Virus record (IMG/VR): IMGVR_UViG_2617270947_000009
DNA length: 6,437 bases
Reading direction: 5' to 3' (one strand)
DNA from: a virus
Lineage: Duplodnaviria > Heunggongvirae > Uroviricota > Caudoviricetes
Below, piece after piece: positions 384-6,437 of this stretch. The notes beneath the pieces were generated by a model. That model had not been told where the DNA came from and did not search any database. It was given only the letters and a program-made list of their open reading frames with translations. A program made the translations under genes and the position numbers. Numbering within the stretch: position 1 is the stretch's first letter; each line of letters opens with the position of its first letter.

Positions 384-386
384 CTG

Positions 387-2204
387 GTGGATAAATCCGG
401 CGCAGTCACAGCAGCACAGACTATTACCTCACATGGTGAAAAAAGACTCCTGACAGGTTCGGCAAAGCGGGGGGCATATCACGCCATAAACGCACAGAAA
501 CGACCTCACAGCATCATAATTGCTGAGGGGGTGGCTACCGCCCTGTCGTGCCATTTAATTCGCCCTGACGCAATGACAGTGGCAGCAATCGACGCTGGCA
601 ACCTGTTGCCAGTAGCGGAAGTCATGCGCAGAACATATCCACAGGCACAAATCATCATTGCCGCAGATAACGATCACCAGCAAGGAAACTCCGAAAGTGG
701 AGGGATCAACACGGGGAAAGATGCCGCAGAGAGGGCCGCTATTTCCGTAGCTGGCTGGGTGTCTCTGCCACCGACTGACTATAAAGCCGACTGGAACGAC
801 TATCACCAACAACACGGGCTGGCGGCAGCCACAGCAGCATTTAAAGATTCGATGTACCAGCCACGGGGGAAAGGGGCGCAGGTGAAAAATCACAAACAGT
901 CAGTCGGGGCGCTGAATGAGATCAGTTCTGGCGAGGTGTTAAGCGATGATGAAATTGCTGTCCTCGAAGAAATCAACCGGACGTTTACGCATGTCACCAT
1001 CGGCGGGAAACACAAGGGGGGGTCGCTAAAGCCTTCTCAAAACGGCGGGGTATCGCACCTTTTTGAGGGTTTATCACAATTTCAGCATTATTTTCATCAT
1101 AAACCGAGAGTCGCCAGAAAGCTGGCGGGATCGGCGTGGCTGTCATGGAGTGGGAAGAACTACAAGCCAGGAGGCGTAGGATTTTATCCAGTACCAGACA
1201 AATGCCCTGACGATGTTTTTAATCTGTATGAGGGGCTGGCACTGGAACCAATTGAAGGAGATTGCACGGTATACCTTAATCACCTGTTGCAGGTTGTCTG
1301 TGCCGGTAATGAAGAGGCATACCAATATCTTATCCAGTGGATGGCGCACATTATCCAAAAGCCTGATGAAAAACCGTCCGTGGCAATCGTGATGAAATCT
1401 GTCCCGGGCACAGGGAAAGGCACAACGGTTAAACCGCTGCTGCAAATACTGGGGCAGTACGCCGCCCACATTAACGGGGCGGGACATATTTCAGGGCGCT
1501 TCAATTCAATACTTGCTAACAAACTACTGGTATTTGCTGACGAAGTGACGATCCACAAGCCGTCTGAAGCTGACAGACTTAAAGCGATTATTAGTGAACC
1601 GACGTTTAACCTTGAGCGCAAGGGAATTGATGCTGAACCAATGCCGAATTTTGCCCGGTTGATATTTGCCAGTAACAGCACACAGGTATTACAGGCAGGG
1701 ATAAGAGAGCGTCGCTATCTCGTGCTTGAGCCATCTCCTGAAAAAGCACAGAGCCGGGAGTATTTTGATCGGCTGTACAGTTGGCTTAATGATGGCGGTG
1801 CCGCAAAGTTGCTTTGGCATCTTAAAGGGGTGGATCTCTCAGGTTTTGACCCTCAACGAGCGCCACAGACCGATGCCTTACGTGAAGAAATCTTGCTGGG
1901 GCTGTCTGGCGTTGAATTGTTTCTTTATGGCGAGCTAATCAATGAACCTCCGTTTAATGGCGAAGTCCGTTTGTTTGCAAAGGATATGGTTAGTCGGTTT
2001 GTAGCGTGGTCGCTTGAGCGTGGGGAAAAGCTTAAAGAACCAGCTGCCAGATCACTACTGGGTAAATCACTTGCACAAATGGGGCTGGTGAAGCATGGAA
2101 GACCAGACCGAGGGAATGGCGTGTTCTACGAACTACCAGAGGTCGGAGTTCTACAGGCTGCGTTTGCCCGTCTGATCGGTATGGGGGGTTATGATGTTTT
2201 TTAA
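387..2204 (+). CDS. P4 alpha-type primase/helicase, N-terminally truncated at the IS junction (likely pseudogene or remnant)
   Basis: Toprim motif AEGVATA (E codon at 525-527) and IIIAADNDHQ DxD motif (D codons 666-668 and 672-674); Walker A VPGTGKGT (approx. 1404-1424) and Walker B LLVFADE (approx. 1525-1545). The open frame begins immediately at the IS end (384), with GTG at 387 as first possible start. In P4 alpha the EGYATA motif lies about 170 residues further from the N-terminus, so about 170 aa including the zinc-binding region appear missing. Stop TAA at 2202-2204. Confidence 0.8.
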   Translation: MDKSGAVTAAQTITSHGEKRLLTGSAKRGAYHAINAQKRPHSIIIAEGVATALSCHLIRPDAMTVAAIDAGNLLPVAEVMRRTYPQAQIIIAADNDHQQGNSESGGINTGKDAAERAAISVAGWVSLPPTDYKADWNDYHQQHGLAAATAAFKDSMYQPRGKGAQVKNHKQSVGALNEISSGEVLSDDEIAVLEEINRTFTHVTIGGKHKGGSLKPSQNGGVSHLFEGLSQFQHYFHHKPRVARKLAGSAWLSWSGKNYKPGGVGFYPVPDKCPDDVFNLYEGLALEPIEGDCTVYLNHLLQVVCAGNEEAYQYLIQWMAHIIQKPDEKPSVAIVMKSVPGTGKGTTVKPLLQILGQYAAHINGAGHISGRFNSILANKLLVFADEVTIHKPSEADRLKAIISEPTFNLERKGIDAEPMPNFARLIFASNSTQVLQAGIRERRYLVLEPSPEKAQSREYFDRLYSWLNDGGAAKLLWHLKGVDLSGFDPQRAPQTDALREEILLGLSGVELFLYGELINEPPFNGEVRLFAKDMVSRFVAWSLERGEKLKEPAARSLLGKSLAQMGLVKHGRPDRGNGVFYELPEVGVLQAAFARLIGMGGYDVF

Positions 2205-2233
2205 TATAGTCTTTTTACAAGAAGATCGTTTTT

Positions 2234-2337
2234 ACCTGTACCACCTATACCACTTTGATAATTCAGCATTAAAAACAATGCGTTATAGTGGTACAGGTCA
2301 ATATCTTACCTATACCAGACCTGTACCACCTATACCA
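2234..2337. repeat. Iteron cluster downstream of primase (candidate origin): 19-bp direct repeat ACCTGTACCACCTATACCA at 2234-2252 and 2319-2337, inverted core copy GTGGTACAGGT at 2288-2298, partial copy CCTATACCAG at 2308-2317, flanking an AT-rich stretch (2254-2287)
   Basis: Repeats read directly from the sequence; the arrangement of iterons next to an AT-rich segment just 3' of a primase/helicase gene resembles P4 ori and SaPI/PICI origins. Confidence 0.6.
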
Positions 2338-2380
2338 TTAACAAACGCATTTCTTCTGGCTGGCTGAAAGGGAACAACCA

Positions 2381-2611
2381 ATGATGAGCACACCATTTTA
2401 CAAAGTGCGCCAGTTAGCTTCTTCCTCTGGCTGGCAGCTACGGTTTGAGGGGCGTTCAGACTGGCTACCCATTGCGGCATGGGCGAATGTTGAAATGTGT
2501 ATTGACGGCGATACCGTTGAAATCATTATTCCCTGCGTGGCAAGTCGGGACGGCTGTATAGAGCCAACAGATATGGCAGCAGAAATCAGAGAGGTAAAAC
2601 ATGAACAATAA
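2381..2611 (+). CDS. Hypothetical protein, 76 aa
   Basis: ATG at 2381 preceded by AAAGGG (2368-2373) at appropriate spacing; overlaps the next gene by 11 nt (translational coupling); no family recognised by eye. Confidence 0.55.
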   Translation: MMSTPFYKVRQLASSSGWQLRFEGRSDWLPIAAWANVEMCIDGDTVEIIIPCVASRDGCIEPTDMAAEIREVKHEQ

Positions 2612-3338
2612 CTATTGCATACCGCAGGGAATGACCAGAACGGAGCGCGAAGAATTAAAAAGTTTCGCTACACAGTGCGGGAATGCTGGCGACATCCAAA
2701 GTCTGGAACGCACTTTAATTATGATTACGCACTGGATGCGTCAGGGGCAAAGGGTTTCATTTACTGAATATGCCAGCCAGTGGACAGAGGCACAGCGCGA
2801 ACGGAGCGACGGTAATCACTCAACACCCGAAATGGCGAAGCAATGGCCTTTCAGTGGTAAACGCTGTATCAGTCCCGGTGGTTCAGATTATTACCCTGCT
2901 GGTGTGGGAGATGAGCCATGTTGTGACGAGACTGAAATCCGCCACGCAGTGACAGTAATTACCGCTGAATACCCACAATTTAACCTTGACGGACTGGCGC
3001 TCCACAACCGGAATGCGGACTGGGAAAACCCGCTTGATAACCCGTCATTTATCGTATCGGCGAAAAGCTGCCTGAGATGGATCAGAGACAACGGGATGAG
3101 TAATGCCCAGATTGAGAGCTTCCCGCAGGATAACCCCACATCTGACACGTTGAAGCATGAAGTGGAGCGATATAACCAGATAAACCACCAGCACAGTGAT
3201 CACCCGCACTATATCCCCAACGGAGCATTTATTGCGGCGATGGTGGCAAGCGGCTACAAGGTTAAGCCAGCGGGAAGAATGAACGCATTTTTCAATATTT
3301 CAAAAAAGGGATTATGTGCTGCTATGGGTAAAAATTAA
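2601..3338 (+). CDS. Hypothetical protein, 245 aa
   Basis: ATG at 2601 preceded by GAGAGG (2588-2593); open frame to TAA at 3336-3338; ORF of this length in the same orientation as neighbours; no recognisable catalytic motif. Confidence 0.6.
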   Translation: MNNNYCIPQGMTRTEREELKSFATQCGNAGDIQSLERTLIMITHWMRQGQRVSFTEYASQWTEAQRERSDGNHSTPEMAKQWPFSGKRCISPGGSDYYPAGVGDEPCCDETEIRHAVTVITAEYPQFNLDGLALHNRNADWENPLDNPSFIVSAKSCLRWIRDNGMSNAQIESFPQDNPTSDTLKHEVERYNQINHQHSDHPHYIPNGAFIAAMVASGYKVKPAGRMNAFFNISKKGLCAAMGKN

Positions 3339-3343
3339 ATAAA

Positions 3344-3447
3344 TGGTACAGGTCTGTACAGGTGGGGAGAGGTCATTTTTACCCACCTGTACCACCTGCA
3401 GGCCGCGTCACAAAAGGGTTTGTGACATGGTGGTACAGGTGGTACAG
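3344..3447. repeat. Second iteron cluster with the same core (CCTGTACCACC / GGTGGTACAGG): GGTACAGGT 3345-3353, TGTACAGGTGG 3355-3365, CACCTGTACCACCTG 3384-3398, GGTGGTACAGGTGGTACAG 3429-3447; the last two form an inverted repeat around the palindrome at 3407-3426
   Basis: Read directly from the sequence; same core motif as the 2234-2337 cluster, present in both orientations. Confidence 0.6.
3407..3426. promoter_or_regulatory. Perfect palindrome GTCACAAA-AGGG-TTTGTGAC (8-bp arms, 4-nt spacer) nested between inverted iterons; candidate protein-binding site
   Basis: Exact reverse-complement arms at 3407-3414 and 3419-3426; not followed by a T-run, so unlikely to be a terminator. Confidence 0.4.
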
Positions 3448-3611
3448 CAAAAACAGCGATTTTCTTTATAAGGTTTTATAAGGTATGTTTTGCTCATCTG
3501 GCAGACGGAGGTATTCGCTGCGGTTTGGCACATAGCCCAGAACAGCAAAGAGTTTTACGAGACTTTTGTAAAATCCAGTGTACAAGGGCGTGACGTTTTT
3601 GAAGGAGGGAC

Positions 3612-3628
3612 CTACGAAATTTTCGTAG
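3612..3628. promoter_or_regulatory. 17-bp perfect palindrome CTACGAAA-T-TTTCGTAG; candidate operator
   Basis: Arms 3612-3619 and 3621-3628 are exact reverse complements; AT-rich centre; preceded by a GAAGGAGGG stretch (3601-3609) with no start codon following. Confidence 0.35.
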
Positions 3629-3822
3629 TTCAAAAAATAGCCTCTGAGATGTTGTTATGCCTGTTCAGCAAACCATCCGCATAGCTGATCGCGAATCAAA
3701 TTACCAATGGAGCCAGAAGCAAGGGCAGAACTGGAAAGCGCCTGCCGTGAAGAGTAATGCGACATCGTAAATATAGTTTTTAGAGTCCATAAAAAAACTG
3801 TCAAAACCTGACATACAGAACG

Positions 3823-3855
3823 ATGCCACCAGCTACTGAACGGTGGCATTTTTTT
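3823..3855 (+). terminator. Rho-independent terminator (8-bp GC-rich stem ATGCCACC/GGTGGCAT, 11-nt loop, run of 7 T)
   Basis: Stem 3823-3830 pairs with 3842-3849; T-run 3849-3855; orientation fits + strand transcription only. Confidence 0.6.
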
Positions 3856-3874
3856 GTGCTATTTGTTTCATATT

Positions 3875-3917
3875 TTGCAATCACAATGATGAATGTTGCG
3901 TTTTATGAAACTATAAT
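3875..3917 (+). promoter_or_regulatory. Putative promoter for the downstream operon: consensus -10 TATAAT at 3912-3917; no good -35 at 16-18 bp spacing (TTGCAA at 3875-3880 is 31 bp upstream)
   Basis: Perfect -10 hexamer 34 nt upstream of the 3951 start codon and downstream of the terminator; the lack of a -35 suggests activator dependence or a misplaced call. Confidence 0.35.
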
Positions 3918-3950
3918 GACTGTTGTTTTATACAGTTCTAAGGGGGCGTT

Positions 3951-4124
3951 ATGGCTATTTCAGTAAAGCCAGTATTGATAAGTGAGAAGCAAATGGAAGC
4001 GATAAAGAAAATTCAGGAGGAGCAGCGTAAAAAATCAGAGGTAGGAGTTGCGCCAACGATCCACGAAATTGCTCGGGGATTAATGGATAAGGCGCTGGCT
4101 TACACTTTAACTGGACGTGGGTAA
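3951..4124 (+). CDS. Small hypothetical protein, 57 aa (MAISVKPVLISEKQMEAIKKIQEEQRKKSEVGVAPTIHEIARGLMDKALAYTLTGRG); possible small DNA-binding (ribbon-helix-helix-like) protein; absent from the supplied ORF track
   Basis: ATG at 3951 preceded by a strong Shine-Dalgarno AAGGGGG (3940-3946); stop TAA at 4122-4124, 4 nt before the ATG of the next gene; predicted strand-helix-turn-helix layout is inferred by eye only. Confidence 0.55.
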   Translation: MAISVKPVLISEKQMEAIKKIQEEQRKKSEVGVAPTIHEIARGLMDKALAYTLTGRG

Positions 4125-4128
4125 ATCA

Positions 4129-5595
4129 ATGGCTACGTGGCAACAGGGTATTAATTCTGGTGGTTTTCTGGCTGGCATCGGTACGCAAAATGAGAATGCG
4201 CCAAAGGCAAGCGACATTAACGCAACGCTTGGTCTGATCCGCGAAAACAATGAACTGGCTCGATCAGGTGCAAATAACGTTGCTCTGACAGGTCTTCGTG
4301 GTCTGGCTGGAGTTGCTGATATTTATAAGCAGCAGCAACAGCAGGAGCGTAAAGCGGCATTCCAGAAAGGTTATGCAGATGCTTATGCGTCCGGTGACAG
4401 GGAGCAGATGCGTAATCTTATTACAGCATTCCCAGAAGAGTTTGAGGAAGTCCGTAAAGGGATGAGTTATGTCGATGATGCTCAAAGGGATGATTATGGC
4501 AATCTGGCGCTCAAAGCACAGGTAGCCTCATCGCTTGGTCAGGGCGCATTTGGCAGGTTCATGATGGATAATGAGCAGGAGATGCGTCGTTTAGGTATCC
4601 CTCCAGAAACTATTGCTGAAATGCAGGTTAATGACCCGCAGGGCTTCCAGCATTTCGCAGGTAATCTGGCGCTGTTTTCTCTCGGTCATGAGAAGTATTT
4701 CGATATCAAAGATCAAATGGAAGGTCGGGATATTGAACGTGGCAAGTTGGCAGAGACAATCCGCAGCAATCAGGCCAGCGAAGCACTTCAGGCGAGAGGG
4801 CAGGATATTAGCCGAGCAAATGCGTTAACGTCAGCATATGCACCAACAGCAGCAATGCAGAATTACAATCAGTACGCTCAAATGTTAAAGGCGGATCCAG
4901 AGGGGGCGGCGGCATTTGCGGCAGCGGCTGGAATTAATACAAACGCCAAAAAATTAATGAGTGTTAGAGAAAACGATGATGGCACTGTCACAAAATACTA
5001 CACAGACGGAAGTGAAGAGCAGGGAAAACTAAACCAGCCAATATCTGGAGATGGGTTTCGTCCAATAGCTTTGCCAACAGCCCAAAAGATCATGGAAAAG
5101 TCGCCAGAAGGGGCTAAAAAAGCTGCTGGATTTGCATACAGAGTTAGGGATGCTCTTGATTCAATGGATACACTGAAAGGCCAGCTTAGCCCACAGCGAG
5201 TGGCGATCATTAATAATGCTTTGGGTAATGGGACGCTGGCTAACTTAACGCTCACCCCAACAGAGCAGCAATACGTTGTTAATGCTAATGACGCAATAAT
5301 GGCAATACTCCGTCAGGAAACAGGGGCAGCTATCGTACCTGCTGAAATGTCAAAATATTATCAAATGTATTTCCCTCAGCCTGGCGACTCCACAAAAACC
5401 ATTGATACCAAGCGCCGGAAGATGGAAAACCAGTTCAATTCGCTGAAAGCTGCTTCTGGTCGAGCTTATGATGCTTTGCGGGTTATTTCAGCAGTTGACA
5501 GAGGGACTTCTTCTTCGTCGCAGACATTGCCGCAATCTGAGCAGGTATCACAGCCAGCAGCCAGCAGTAATTTTTCTTCACTATGGGGTGATTAA
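4129..5595 (+). CDS. Hypothetical protein, about 488 aa (492 aa if the GTG at 4117 is used); Ala/Gln/Gly-rich, low complexity with a QQQQQ run, no catalytic motif recognised
   Basis: Long uninterrupted frame; ATG at 4129 closely follows the upstream stop; stop TAA at 5593-5595 overlaps the next start (TAATG); the composition is the kind seen in phage scaffold, ejection or tape-measure-like proteins, but the family is not identified. Confidence 0.65.
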   Translation: MATWQQGINSGGFLAGIGTQNENAPKASDINATLGLIRENNELARSGANNVALTGLRGLAGVADIYKQQQQQERKAAFQKGYADAYASGDREQMRNLITAFPEEFEEVRKGMSYVDDAQRDDYGNLALKAQVASSLGQGAFGRFMMDNEQEMRRLGIPPETIAEMQVNDPQGFQHFAGNLALFSLGHEKYFDIKDQMEGRDIERGKLAETIRSNQASEALQARGQDISRANALTSAYAPTAAMQNYNQYAQMLKADPEGAAAFAAAAGINTNAKKLMSVRENDDGTVTKYYTDGSEEQGKLNQPISGDGFRPIALPTAQKIMEKSPEGAKKAAGFAYRVRDALDSMDTLKGQLSPQRVAIINNALGNGTLANLTLTPTEQQYVVNANDAIMAILRQETGAAIVPAEMSKYYQMYFPQPGDSTKTIDTKRRKMENQFNSLKAASGRAYDALRVISAVDRGTSSSSQTLPQSEQVSQPAASSNFSSLWGD

Positions 5596-6011
5596 TGGCT
5601 AAAGCATGGAAAGATGTTATCGCCTCTCCACAGTATCAGGCGTTAGCACCAGAACAAAAAGCGCAGGCTCAGGAGCAATACTTCAATGAAGTCGTGGCCC
5701 CGCAAGCCGGAGAAAGTGTAGCGCAGGCTAAGCAGGCTTTTTATGCTGCCTATCCACTACCATCAACGAATGAAATAGACCGATCCCAATCAGCAACTCA
5801 AAATATTCAACATACATCATCTGATAATTCTCTTGCGTCAGGGTATGCAAAGTTAGCGACTCAGCAAAGAGAGGGGCTTGAGCGTTCAGCAGAACAGGGA
5901 GCCAGTCTTGGGGCTGCGATGCGCGATGCTATAACAGGCGAAAGCCGAATGACTCCAGAGATGGAGAGACTGCAAAATGTCGACCTTGCCCCAGAGTTAA
6001 CCTCACTCTGA
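5595..6011 (+). CDS. Hypothetical protein, 138 aa as it stands; probably C-terminally truncated, because the stop codon TGA (6009-6011) is the first three bases of the IS terminus
   Basis: ATG at 5595 overlaps the preceding stop (translational coupling); the last native codon ends at 6008 and the IS end TGAACCGCCCCGG begins at 6009. Confidence 0.55.
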   Translation: MAKAWKDVIASPQYQALAPEQKAQAQEQYFNEVVAPQAGESVAQAKQAFYAAYPLPSTNEIDRSQSATQNIQHTSSDNSLASGYAKLATQQREGLERSAEQGASLGAAMRDAITGESRMTPEMERLQNVDLAPELTSL

Positions 6012-6437
6012 ACCGCCCCGGGTTTCCTGGAGAGTGTTTTATCTGTGAACTCAGGCTGCCAGATCATCGTTTCCGATGGAAGCATAATAAGCTTTTTCTG
6101 CTTCTGCCGGAGGAGTATGGCCCAGCCTTTCCAGCAATCGTCGATTGTTATACCAGTCCACCCACGTGAGTGTGGCCAGTTCCACTTCTGCACGGTTTTT
6201 CCAGCTCTTACGGTGTATTACCTCCGCTTTGTAAAGACCATTGATGCTCTCCGCCATCGCGTTGTCATACGAGTCGCCTGTACTTCCTGTTGATGCCAGT
6301 AATCCGGCTTCCTTAAGCCGCTGTGTGTAGGCCAGCGATACATACTGAGAACCTTTATCACTGTGATGGACCGTGCCGGACGGTCGACGGGCCCATAACG
6401 CCTGCTCCAGTGCATCCAGCACGAATGTCGTTTCCAT
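6009..6437 (-). mobile_element. Partial IS3-family insertion sequence, second copy in inverted orientation (terminal repeat plus 3' part of transposase gene); continues beyond the window end
   Basis: 6009-6391 is the reverse complement of 1-383, with two mismatches found by eye (6022 and 6074); terminal sequence TGAACCGCCCCGGGTTTCCTGG at 6009-6030. Confidence 0.85.
6051..6437 (-). CDS. IS3-family transposase OrfB (DDE integrase domain), C-terminal portion; 5'-partial at window edge
   Basis: Translation ...RRPSGTVHHSDKGSQYVSLAYTQRLKEAGLLASTGSTGDSYDNAMAESINGLYKAEVIH...ASIGNDDLAA matches the copy at 1-341 except one residue (G vs R); stop (TCA on + strand) at 6051-6053. Confidence 0.85.
   Translation of the reverse strand: METTFVLDALEQALWARRPSGTVHHSDKGSQYVSLAYTQRLKEAGLLASTGSTGDSYDNAMAESINGLYKAEVIHRKSWKNRAEVELATLTWVDWYNNRRLLERLGHTPPAEAEKAYYASIGNDDLAA

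Follow-up and report, generated by a model that had tools for sequence, protein, structure and literature searches.

The closest described counterparts of the locus treated here are the replication origins of satellite elements. In the Staphylococcus aureus pathogenicity islands (SaPIs), an AT-rich region with iteron sets on either side lies immediately 3' of pri/rep (PMC6092414). For EcCICFT073, a phage-inducible chromosomal island (PICI) of Escherichia coli, a plasmid with pri-ori persisted at the restrictive temperature, no colonies were obtained with the rep mutant, and a significant difference from pri-ori was seen for delta-pri as well as for delta-ori (PMC6092414). In the annotated genome of satellite phage P4 (NC_001609), crr lies 45 bp after the alpha stop and rep_origin 4.7 kb away. 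In the P4 work of Flensburg and Calendar 1987, Ziegelin et al. 1993 and 1995, and Yeo et al. 2002, the alpha protein reportedly binds type 1 repeats in ori and in crr, its binding domain is said to be a C-terminal winged helix, and both ori and crr are said to be needed in cis. Our analysis concerns a stretch of 6,437 nucleotides from a virus record of the Caudoviricetes (IMG/VR IMGVR_UViG_2617270947_000009), which is called the window in the following. An original prediction, made from the letters of the window, had proposed positions 2234-2337, immediately 3' of a primase gene, as a candidate origin of iterons. We conclude that a PICI-type satellite island most probably has one half of its vegetative replication origin (half A) in this region. 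Judged from the sequence, the origin most likely has two parts and belongs to the PICI/P4 kind, with an iteron specificity of its own. To a specialist, an iteron origin behind a satellite primase would come as no surprise; the specificity is new, the kind is known.

The features that carry this reading are the following, in window coordinates:
387-2204, plus strand: primase-helicase gene, 3' 605 codons; presumed initiator, 783 amino acids (aa) in the intact protein (WP_016234635)
1968-2174, plus strand: predicted winged-helix domain at the primase C-terminus; presumed iteron-binding domain
2234-2337, plus strand: putative origin half A, with six iterons at 2235+, 2244+, 2289-, 2309+, 2320+ and 2329+
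2253-2288, no strand: AT-rich spacer of half A, 36 bp, 28% GC against 48% for the window
3344-3448, minus strand: putative origin half B, with iterons at 3344-, 3386+, 3431- and 3440-
3395-3430, no strand: spacer of half B, GC-rich, 58% GC

The original prediction described a 19-bp repeat in two direct copies 85 bp apart. Copies and spacing are exact, since the 19-mer ACCTGTACCACCTATACCA occurs exactly twice (2234-2252 and 2319-2337, starts 85 bp apart), but the true repeat unit is the 9-bp iteron CCTRTACCA, and the 19-mer consists of two units in tandem. The description was also right in placing an inverted core (TGGTACAGG, 2289-2297) and a partial copy (CCTATACCA, 2309-2317) between the 19-mers, in noting an AT-rich tract beside them, and in locating the repeats immediately 3' of the primase, whose open reading frame (ORF) stops at 2204, with the array starting 30 bp further on. 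The orientation of the six units is + + - + + +, with start-to-start gaps of 9/45/20/11/9 bp; two units are followed by the spacer and then by the other four. In the window, CTGTACCA is observed seven times against 0.15 expected, a number reached in 0 of 200 shuffles, and CCTRTACCA with at most one mismatch is observed 11 times against 1.9 expected (again 0/200 shuffles). The interval first proposed proved to be only half of the candidate origin. Four of the seven exact CTGTACCA copies lie outside 2234-2337 and cluster at 3344-3448, just after an ORF of 245 aa. This second cluster, half B, is an inverse copy of the half-A layout with gaps of 42/45/9 bp; it also contains a degenerate palindromic unit, CTGTACAG, at 3354-3361. 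The distance from half A to half B in the window is 1015 bp.

The region 3' of pri-rep in EcCICFT073 carries the iteron CTGTCTACC with gaps of 9/49/19/11/9, then 34, then 11/19/49/9 bp. Like the locus of the window, it stands directly 3' of the initiator gene and consists of two sets of 9-bp iterons around an AT-rich spacer; unit order and spacing are almost identical (9/45/20/11/9, a gap, and 42/45/9 in the window), and the box AAGCCGCGCCA is found in the half-B spacer of both. The islands are also of one type, with an integrase, an AlpA-like helix-turn-helix (HTH) protein and a primase, all rightward. They differ in the iteron, CTGTCTACC there and CCTRTACCA here, and in the continuity of the origin, which is contiguous in EcCICFT073, whereas 1 kb with two genes lies between the halves here. 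The EcCICFT073 origin was tested experimentally; that of the window is a prediction from sequence. No similarity was found by BLASTP between the primase of the window element and the primases of EcCICFT073, EcCI042 and EcCIRM13514. The primase of EcCIATCC25922 has the same length, product name and gene neighbourhood as that of CFT073.

In P4, which the original prediction cited for an origin just downstream of alpha, an iteron block does lie there, but it is the annotated crr, and rep_origin is the distant site. On the alpha strand, P4 ori1 reads +10+43-22+11+10+ and matches half A unit for unit; each 120-bp repeat of crr reads -14+18+43-9- and matches half B. Both systems have two separate cis iteron regions with one block directly 3' of the initiator gene, an initiator of the same build with a homologous N-terminal primase part (335 aa aligned with P4 alpha, 33% identity, E 4e-41), no DnaA box, and related iteron cores (P4 CTGTTCACC, window CTGTACCA). 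The order of the halves differs: in P4 the B-type region (crr, duplicated) stands beside alpha with the A-type ori 4.7 kb off, whereas in the window A stands beside the primase and B 1 kb downstream. Furthermore, P4 has capsid-size and helper-control genes that are absent here. In place of the P4 type 1 iteron TGTTCACC, the window has the core CTGTACC / CTATACC, a difference that had been correctly pointed out from the start. In the helicase and C-terminal domains, no sequence similarity between the two proteins is detectable. TIGR01613, which covers the P4-family helicase/C-terminal region, scored 21 bits against a cut-off of 108.7; BLASTP and profile comparison of the primase C-terminal region with the alpha C-terminus gave no match; and the alpha origin-binding domain is not among the top structural matches of the modelled C-terminus, although the predicted fold class, a winged helix, is the one reported for it.

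EcCIRM13514 occupies the same yicC-dinD attachment (att) site, and its integrase is 89% identical to that of the window island; it has the same origin layout 3' of its primase, but that primase is unrelated (no match at E < 1e-3) and the iterons are of the P4 type, TGTTCACC. The likeness to the SaPI origins is an analogy only, drawn from their description and not from a comparison of sequence or geometry, and host phylum, initiator and iterons are different there. A DnaA-dependent iteron plasmid origin was considered and rejected: the DnaA box TTWTNCACA occurs nowhere in the window, neither beside the iterons nor elsewhere. A full-text literature search for the iteron sequence gave, among the matches listed, only articles on unrelated subjects.

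Of 5426 complete E. coli genomes, exactly 130 contain the array; the counts for half B and for the 3' portion of the primase gene are the same. The array matches lie on chromosomes only, at one or two places (median one place per genome), and a primase gene is annotated under nearly every match listed, one record having unnamed proteins. A widespread host repetitive element, the outcome that the original prediction had named as speaking against itself, is rejected by these counts. Identity among the 130 copies is never below 95% (90% for half B), even in a sensitive blastn search aimed at divergent relatives. Hence, E. coli offers no evolutionary depth, and other species are needed. Relatives were collected by a protein search, which gave ~1400 homologues, full-length ones down to about 40% identity, and by a scan of one genome per species, which gave 80 loci; the 35 best of these 80, from different species and with primases 42-76% identical, form the comparison set.

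The search for the core motif in related elements, suggested as a check by the original prediction, was positive: at least four copies of CT[GA]TACC lie within 600 bp after the primase stop in 29 of the 35 loci. In most of them, no 8-mer is more frequent than CTGTACCA in the 500 bp that follow the stop, and the density of CT[GA]TACC is 48-fold higher after the stop (224 in 21.9 kb) than elsewhere (63 in 294 kb). The hosts comprise Enterobacterales (Buttiauxella, Xenorhabdus, Pantoea, Proteus, Providencia, Moellerella, Rahnella, Hafnia, Erwinia), Methylococcales (Methylobacter, Methylomonas, Methylomicrobium) and marine bacteria (Alteromonadaceae, Colwellia, Glaciecola, a metagenome-assembled genome of the Oceanospirillaceae), as well as an Osedax symbiont; Alteromonadales are among the hosts with the motif.

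The layout is kept together with the motif. In the relatives, half A consists of two direct units 9 bp apart, 45-46 bp to an inverted unit, and 20 bp to three direct units (11, 9); half B consists of one to three inverted units, 32-42 bp to a direct unit, and 45 bp to two inverted units 9 bp apart. When strictly no more than one mismatch is allowed, 17 of the 35 relatives show the half-A triple and 16 show the half-B triple. The halves adjoin in most relatives, among them Rahnella, Hafnia, Moellerella, Methylomonas and one Buttiauxella locus (L020), and then span about 230 bp together; they are separated by about 1.0 kb in the window and in another Buttiauxella locus (L004), and by about 0.3 kb in Xenorhabdus. 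When window positions 2205-2340 are joined to 3337-3470, the result is collinear with the contiguous origins of Rahnella, Hafnia, Buttiauxella and Methylomonas, and in this alignment the iteron columns are the most conserved, while the spacer from the first pair to the inverted unit diverges. Measured in 16 loci, this spacer is 34-37 bp long in 13 and 25-27 bp long in three, and its GC content is below the locus mean in most of the 16. One distant relative, L028 from Sansalvadorimonas, has a 34%-identical primase followed at 4871-5080 by the same array layout, in which every unit is CTGTTCCA; the winged-helix motifs of its primase are altered, with a conserved Arg changed and the hairpin shortened.

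Exchanges of gene modules indicate with which gene the iterons are associated. Of the island genes, only the primase is common to all 35 loci. It is modular: E. coli and Klebsiella proteins (P0040-P0120) resemble its N-terminal ~350 aa (zinc ribbon and Toprim) at 73-86% identity and have different helicase/C-terminal parts, DUF927 or D5_N/Pox_D5. For 14 loci (L015-L027, L037), the tblastn match covers only residues ~317-783, i.e. the helicase and C-terminus, and most of these loci keep CTGTACC. The E. coli sister islands L087 and L088 present another combination. They have the same upstream genes as the window island, downstream DNA that is 97-98% identical, and a primase whose N-terminal part is in common with the window and whose C-terminal two-thirds are of the DUF927 type. 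After this primase stand six copies of GTTGGTTCA, three direct, an AT-rich spacer and three inverted; CT[GA]TACC does not occur in the 8.7 kb read from these two islands. L088 matches the window only at 384-687 (83%), 3549-4770 (97%) and 5533-6007 (97%), and L087 only at 384-687 and 3727-6007 (98.5%). The block replaced in L088 defines a further feature:
688-3548, plus strand: replication cassette, replaced in L088; ends 100 bp past half B

This cassette contains the helicase and winged-helix part of the primase, half A, the two genes that we call orf76 and orf245, and half B. From 3549 on, the stretch is 97-98% conserved in sister islands with another replication cassette. In L089, a third sister type, a D5_N/Pox_D5 C-terminal part goes with ten copies of TATCCCTAC in the same layout. 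Even an island with a closely similar integrase, EcCIRM13514, combines an unrelated primase with iterons of another sequence, TGTTCACC. The swaps in L015-L027, L037 and L087-L089, together with L028 and EcCIRM13514, argue that the iterons move together with the initiator's helicase and C-terminal part, and not with the integrase, the regulators or the downstream genes. E. coli matches to the 3' part of the primase only (H92-H95) were considered as possible recombinants and set aside; H92, the one inspected, is a deletion remnant and uninformative. The proposal of a candidate origin thus gains from several sides: motif and geometry are kept 3' of homologous primases in some 30 species, the geometry is that of the tested EcCICFT073 origin and of P4 ori1, and the iterons change with a swap of the C-terminal part of the primase.

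A similar association occurs on a plasmid. Vibrio vulnificus pMP1 (L093, 7.6 kb) encodes a 478-aa homologue of the helicase and C-terminal part, with 36% identity over 96% of the C-terminal 367 aa, and after the gene, at 2180-2480, it carries arrays of the 9-bp TTCCACNTT in both orientations. Its helicase and downstream iterons are likely a minimal self-sufficient replicon of the same design.

According to Pfam, the window primase contains Toprim_3 at aa 43-144 and a DUF5906 core of the superfamily 3 (SF3) helicases at aa 337-436. The full-length gene in a complete relative (L001, 13470-15821) encodes 783 aa with an N-terminal zinc ribbon, and the Pfam families of the primase are PF08273 and PF13362. 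A sequence search of the PDB with the full primase matched the SF3 helicase core (6k9e) only and returned nothing for the C-terminus. An AlphaFold2 model of the last 134 residues (mean predicted local distance difference test score, pLDDT, of 84) shows the order strand-helix-helix-hairpin-helix, and the C-terminal domain models as a winged helix. Among homologues, two motifs of this domain hardly vary: 'PAAR', where the second helix of the helix-helix pair begins, and the hairpin motif 'GR..RG.G..Y.LP'. Both are different in the homologue whose iterons are CTGTTCCA.

On these grounds we propose the following mechanism. The C-terminal winged-helix domain of the adjacent primase-helicase would bind the 9-bp iterons. 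By analogy with P4 alpha, initiator molecules would occupy the iterons of opposite orientation that flank the 36-bp spacer, and would assemble into helicase rings. The spacer itself would be the unwinding region where the DNA opens, and the primase domain of the same protein would prime synthesis for the host polymerase, without DnaA. Half B would act as a second cis element, the equivalent of P4 crr. Because 1 kb with orf76 and orf245 is inserted between the halves, their cooperation would need looping, as happens between P4 ori and crr over 4.7 kb.

Several observations weigh against this interpretation. An insertion sequence (IS) interrupts the window primase at 384, at about codon 178, and so the window copy probably cannot fire unless the initiator is supplied in trans. 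That an origin split by 1 kb still works we infer from P4 only. Foldseek comparison of the modelled domain with the PDB gave winged-helix hits only, none of them significant (E >= 0.1). Co-variation between recognition-helix residues and iteron bases was sought and is not clean; L030 is without the conserved Arg and yet has CTGTACC, which argues against a simple residue-to-base rule. Finally, the half-A spacer is not AT-rich in L020 (0.46 GC), L024 (0.51) and L037 (0.49). AT-richness of the spacer is thus common but not universal, and the melting site is a guess.

If the iterons were an operator, bound by the primase or by a regulator of the island, they would control transcription into orf76, orf245 and the genes downstream, and not replication. 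Iteron arrays of plasmid replicons often autoregulate too; from the primase stop to orf76 the prediction shows no intrinsic terminator, so that transcription probably crosses half A; and half B starts a 500-bp gene-free stretch before the ejection-protein genes. However, a promoter and terminator scan of 2100-4200 found nothing in or beside either iteron cluster, sigma-70-like promoters included, its single terminator lying near 3832-3856. The array geometry persists whatever genes come after it, and the same layout occurs in the functionally tested EcCICFT073 origin and in the annotated P4 origin. We regard control of transcription in place of replication as quite unlikely, and it could also coexist with an origin function instead of replacing it. 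A host nucleoid or partition factor, the island integrase or a packaging protein could also be imagined as the binder, which would make the array a centromere, an arm site or a pac site. The binding of the iterons by the primase is indeed our inference, and the box [AG]GCCNCGNCA in the half-B spacer is independent of the iteron specificity and could be the site of some other factor. Yet no other island gene is common to the loci that keep the motif, the island with the 89%-identical integrase has different iterons, and the sister islands with the same flanking genes and another primase C-terminal part are without the motif; a host factor, moreover, cannot account for a change of motif within E. 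coli. Such a binder therefore appears very unlikely to us.

Another scenario takes the array as the relic of an origin that the insertion of orf76 and orf245 split and killed, with the repeats remaining by recent common descent. Conservation within E. coli says little on this point, the 130 copies being so nearly identical; the window primase is disrupted by an IS, and some copies have large primase deletions (L003, with a 259-aa remnant); others are intact, for example NZ_CP029747 4368439-4372100. The split form with the iterons of both halves intact is, however, also found in Buttiauxella, where the primase is 64% identical, and a split with orf76 alone is kept in five Xenorhabdus species at about 50% identity. 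Retention of the split form over such distances (50-64% primase identity) is hard to reconcile with neutral decay, and according to the P4 literature P4 functions with its halves 4.7 kb apart. We consider a dead origin unlikely. Chance, or a generic host repeat, is scarcely credible in view of the shuffle tests (0/200) and of an array that occurs in 130 of 5426 genomes beside the primase gene. The interpretation as one half of a replication origin is accordingly the one we adopt.

Between the halves of this putative origin lie two genes:
2381-2611, plus strand: orf76, between the halves; no family match
2601-3338, plus strand: orf245, between the halves; sole match weak, phrog_9576

The product of orf76 has 76 aa, and homologues with 41-74% identity stand directly after half A in eight of the 35 loci (L004-L010 and L014, which range from E. 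coli to Xenorhabdus). In L004, L006, L007, L008 and L010, orf76 is flanked on both sides by iteron clusters. Homologues of orf245 are found in three of the 35 loci; in the Xenorhabdus loci L005 and L007, the homologue follows half B and does not precede it. Searches of orf76 and orf245 against Pfam, PHROGs, NCBIfam and PADLOC returned nothing useful.

The spacer of half B has elements of its own, namely the box AGGCCGCGTCA at 3400-3410 and the palindrome GTCACAAA-AGGG-TTTGTGAC at 3407-3426. The box [AG]GCCNCGNCA is found at the position of the half-B spacer in 10 of 41 loci, which have three iteron specificities, and elsewhere in the 41 loci it occurs only three times. The loci with both the box and a short palindrome are the window, L012, L020-L023, L025, L084, L086 and L089, and in most of them the palindrome after the box reads GCCA-N4-TGG. 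Neither P4 nor EcCIRM13514 has the box. A site for a second factor and a priming site are possibilities for its function.

Downstream of half B, about 500 bp (3449-3950) are without an annotated gene, ahead of the ejection-protein genes. They contain a terminator-like hairpin on the plus strand (stem at 3832-3847 in the scan, T-run to 3856). Rfam gave no match for 3449-3950, and a scan of the whole window at E <= 1 found no RNA family. This stretch may be a small RNA or a leader.

The island as a whole is known from complete genomes. The window derives from E. coli: its positions 384-6008 are ~99% identical to part of an island in many E. coli chromosomes, and the best E. coli matches cover only this segment. 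The remainder at the left end is:
1-383, no strand: IS fragment with integrase core domain (rve_3, rve_2); inverted copy of 6009-6391

The two IS copies (1-383 and 6009-6391) are 383 nt long and 99% complementary, and they bracket the island segment. The copy at 6009-6391 cuts the gene after the ejection-protein gene, and one relative has IS1203 at the matching downstream position. The pair could be a real double insertion or a contig ending in repeats. In the complete relative NZ_CP029747 (L001), the island lies between yicC and dinD and encodes an integrase, a 72-aa HTH protein, proteins of the antirepressor and Ash-like kinds, the 783-aa primase-helicase and two hypothetical proteins, followed by P22-type DNA-ejection proteins and PerC. 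One strand carries all genes from the integrase to the last ejection gene. The yicC-dinD site is a published PICI att site, which is used by EcCIRM13514 (PMC6092414 Table S1). Hence the host element has the marks of a PICI, with an integrase at a PICI att site, an AlpA-like regulator, pri-rep and rightward transcription. The ejection genes (window 4117-6011; L001 17736-21307) encode Inj_translocase and a gp16-like 701-aa protein, with DUF2824 in one relative. P22-type ejection genes without capsid genes are an unusual cargo for a PICI-like island. At L001 12381-12644, RefSeq names an 87-aa product 'nicotinic acetylcholine receptor subunit beta', which is almost certainly an annotation error.

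The analysis supplies a putative origin, in its full extent, for the primase family with zinc ribbon, Toprim and DUF5906, which is unlike the three published E. coli PICI initiator types tested and is common across satellite-like islands of Gammaproteobacteria. Cloning, copy-number assays and island annotation can now draw on the exact iterons and on the limits of both halves. The natural swaps suggest that the helicase, the winged-helix part and the origin move together as one cassette, and the different iteron specificities on one layout (CTGTACC, CTGTCTACC, CTGTTCACC, CTGTTCCA, TATCCCTAC) would be a resource for the rules of DNA recognition by initiators. That half A corresponds to P4 ori1, and half B to P4 crr, offers a simple structural reading of the two-site requirement of P4. 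We put forward tentatively, and with some doubt, that the window is an intermediate between the contiguous PICI origin and the divided ori/crr of P4, so that an ancestral composite origin could be separated and still work. If this is true, there would be a series of separation from 0.3 kb in Xenorhabdus through 1 kb in the window to 4.7 kb in P4, orf76 could be a replication accessory and not cargo, and the need of P4 for crr in cis would be explained, crr being the missing half of one origin.

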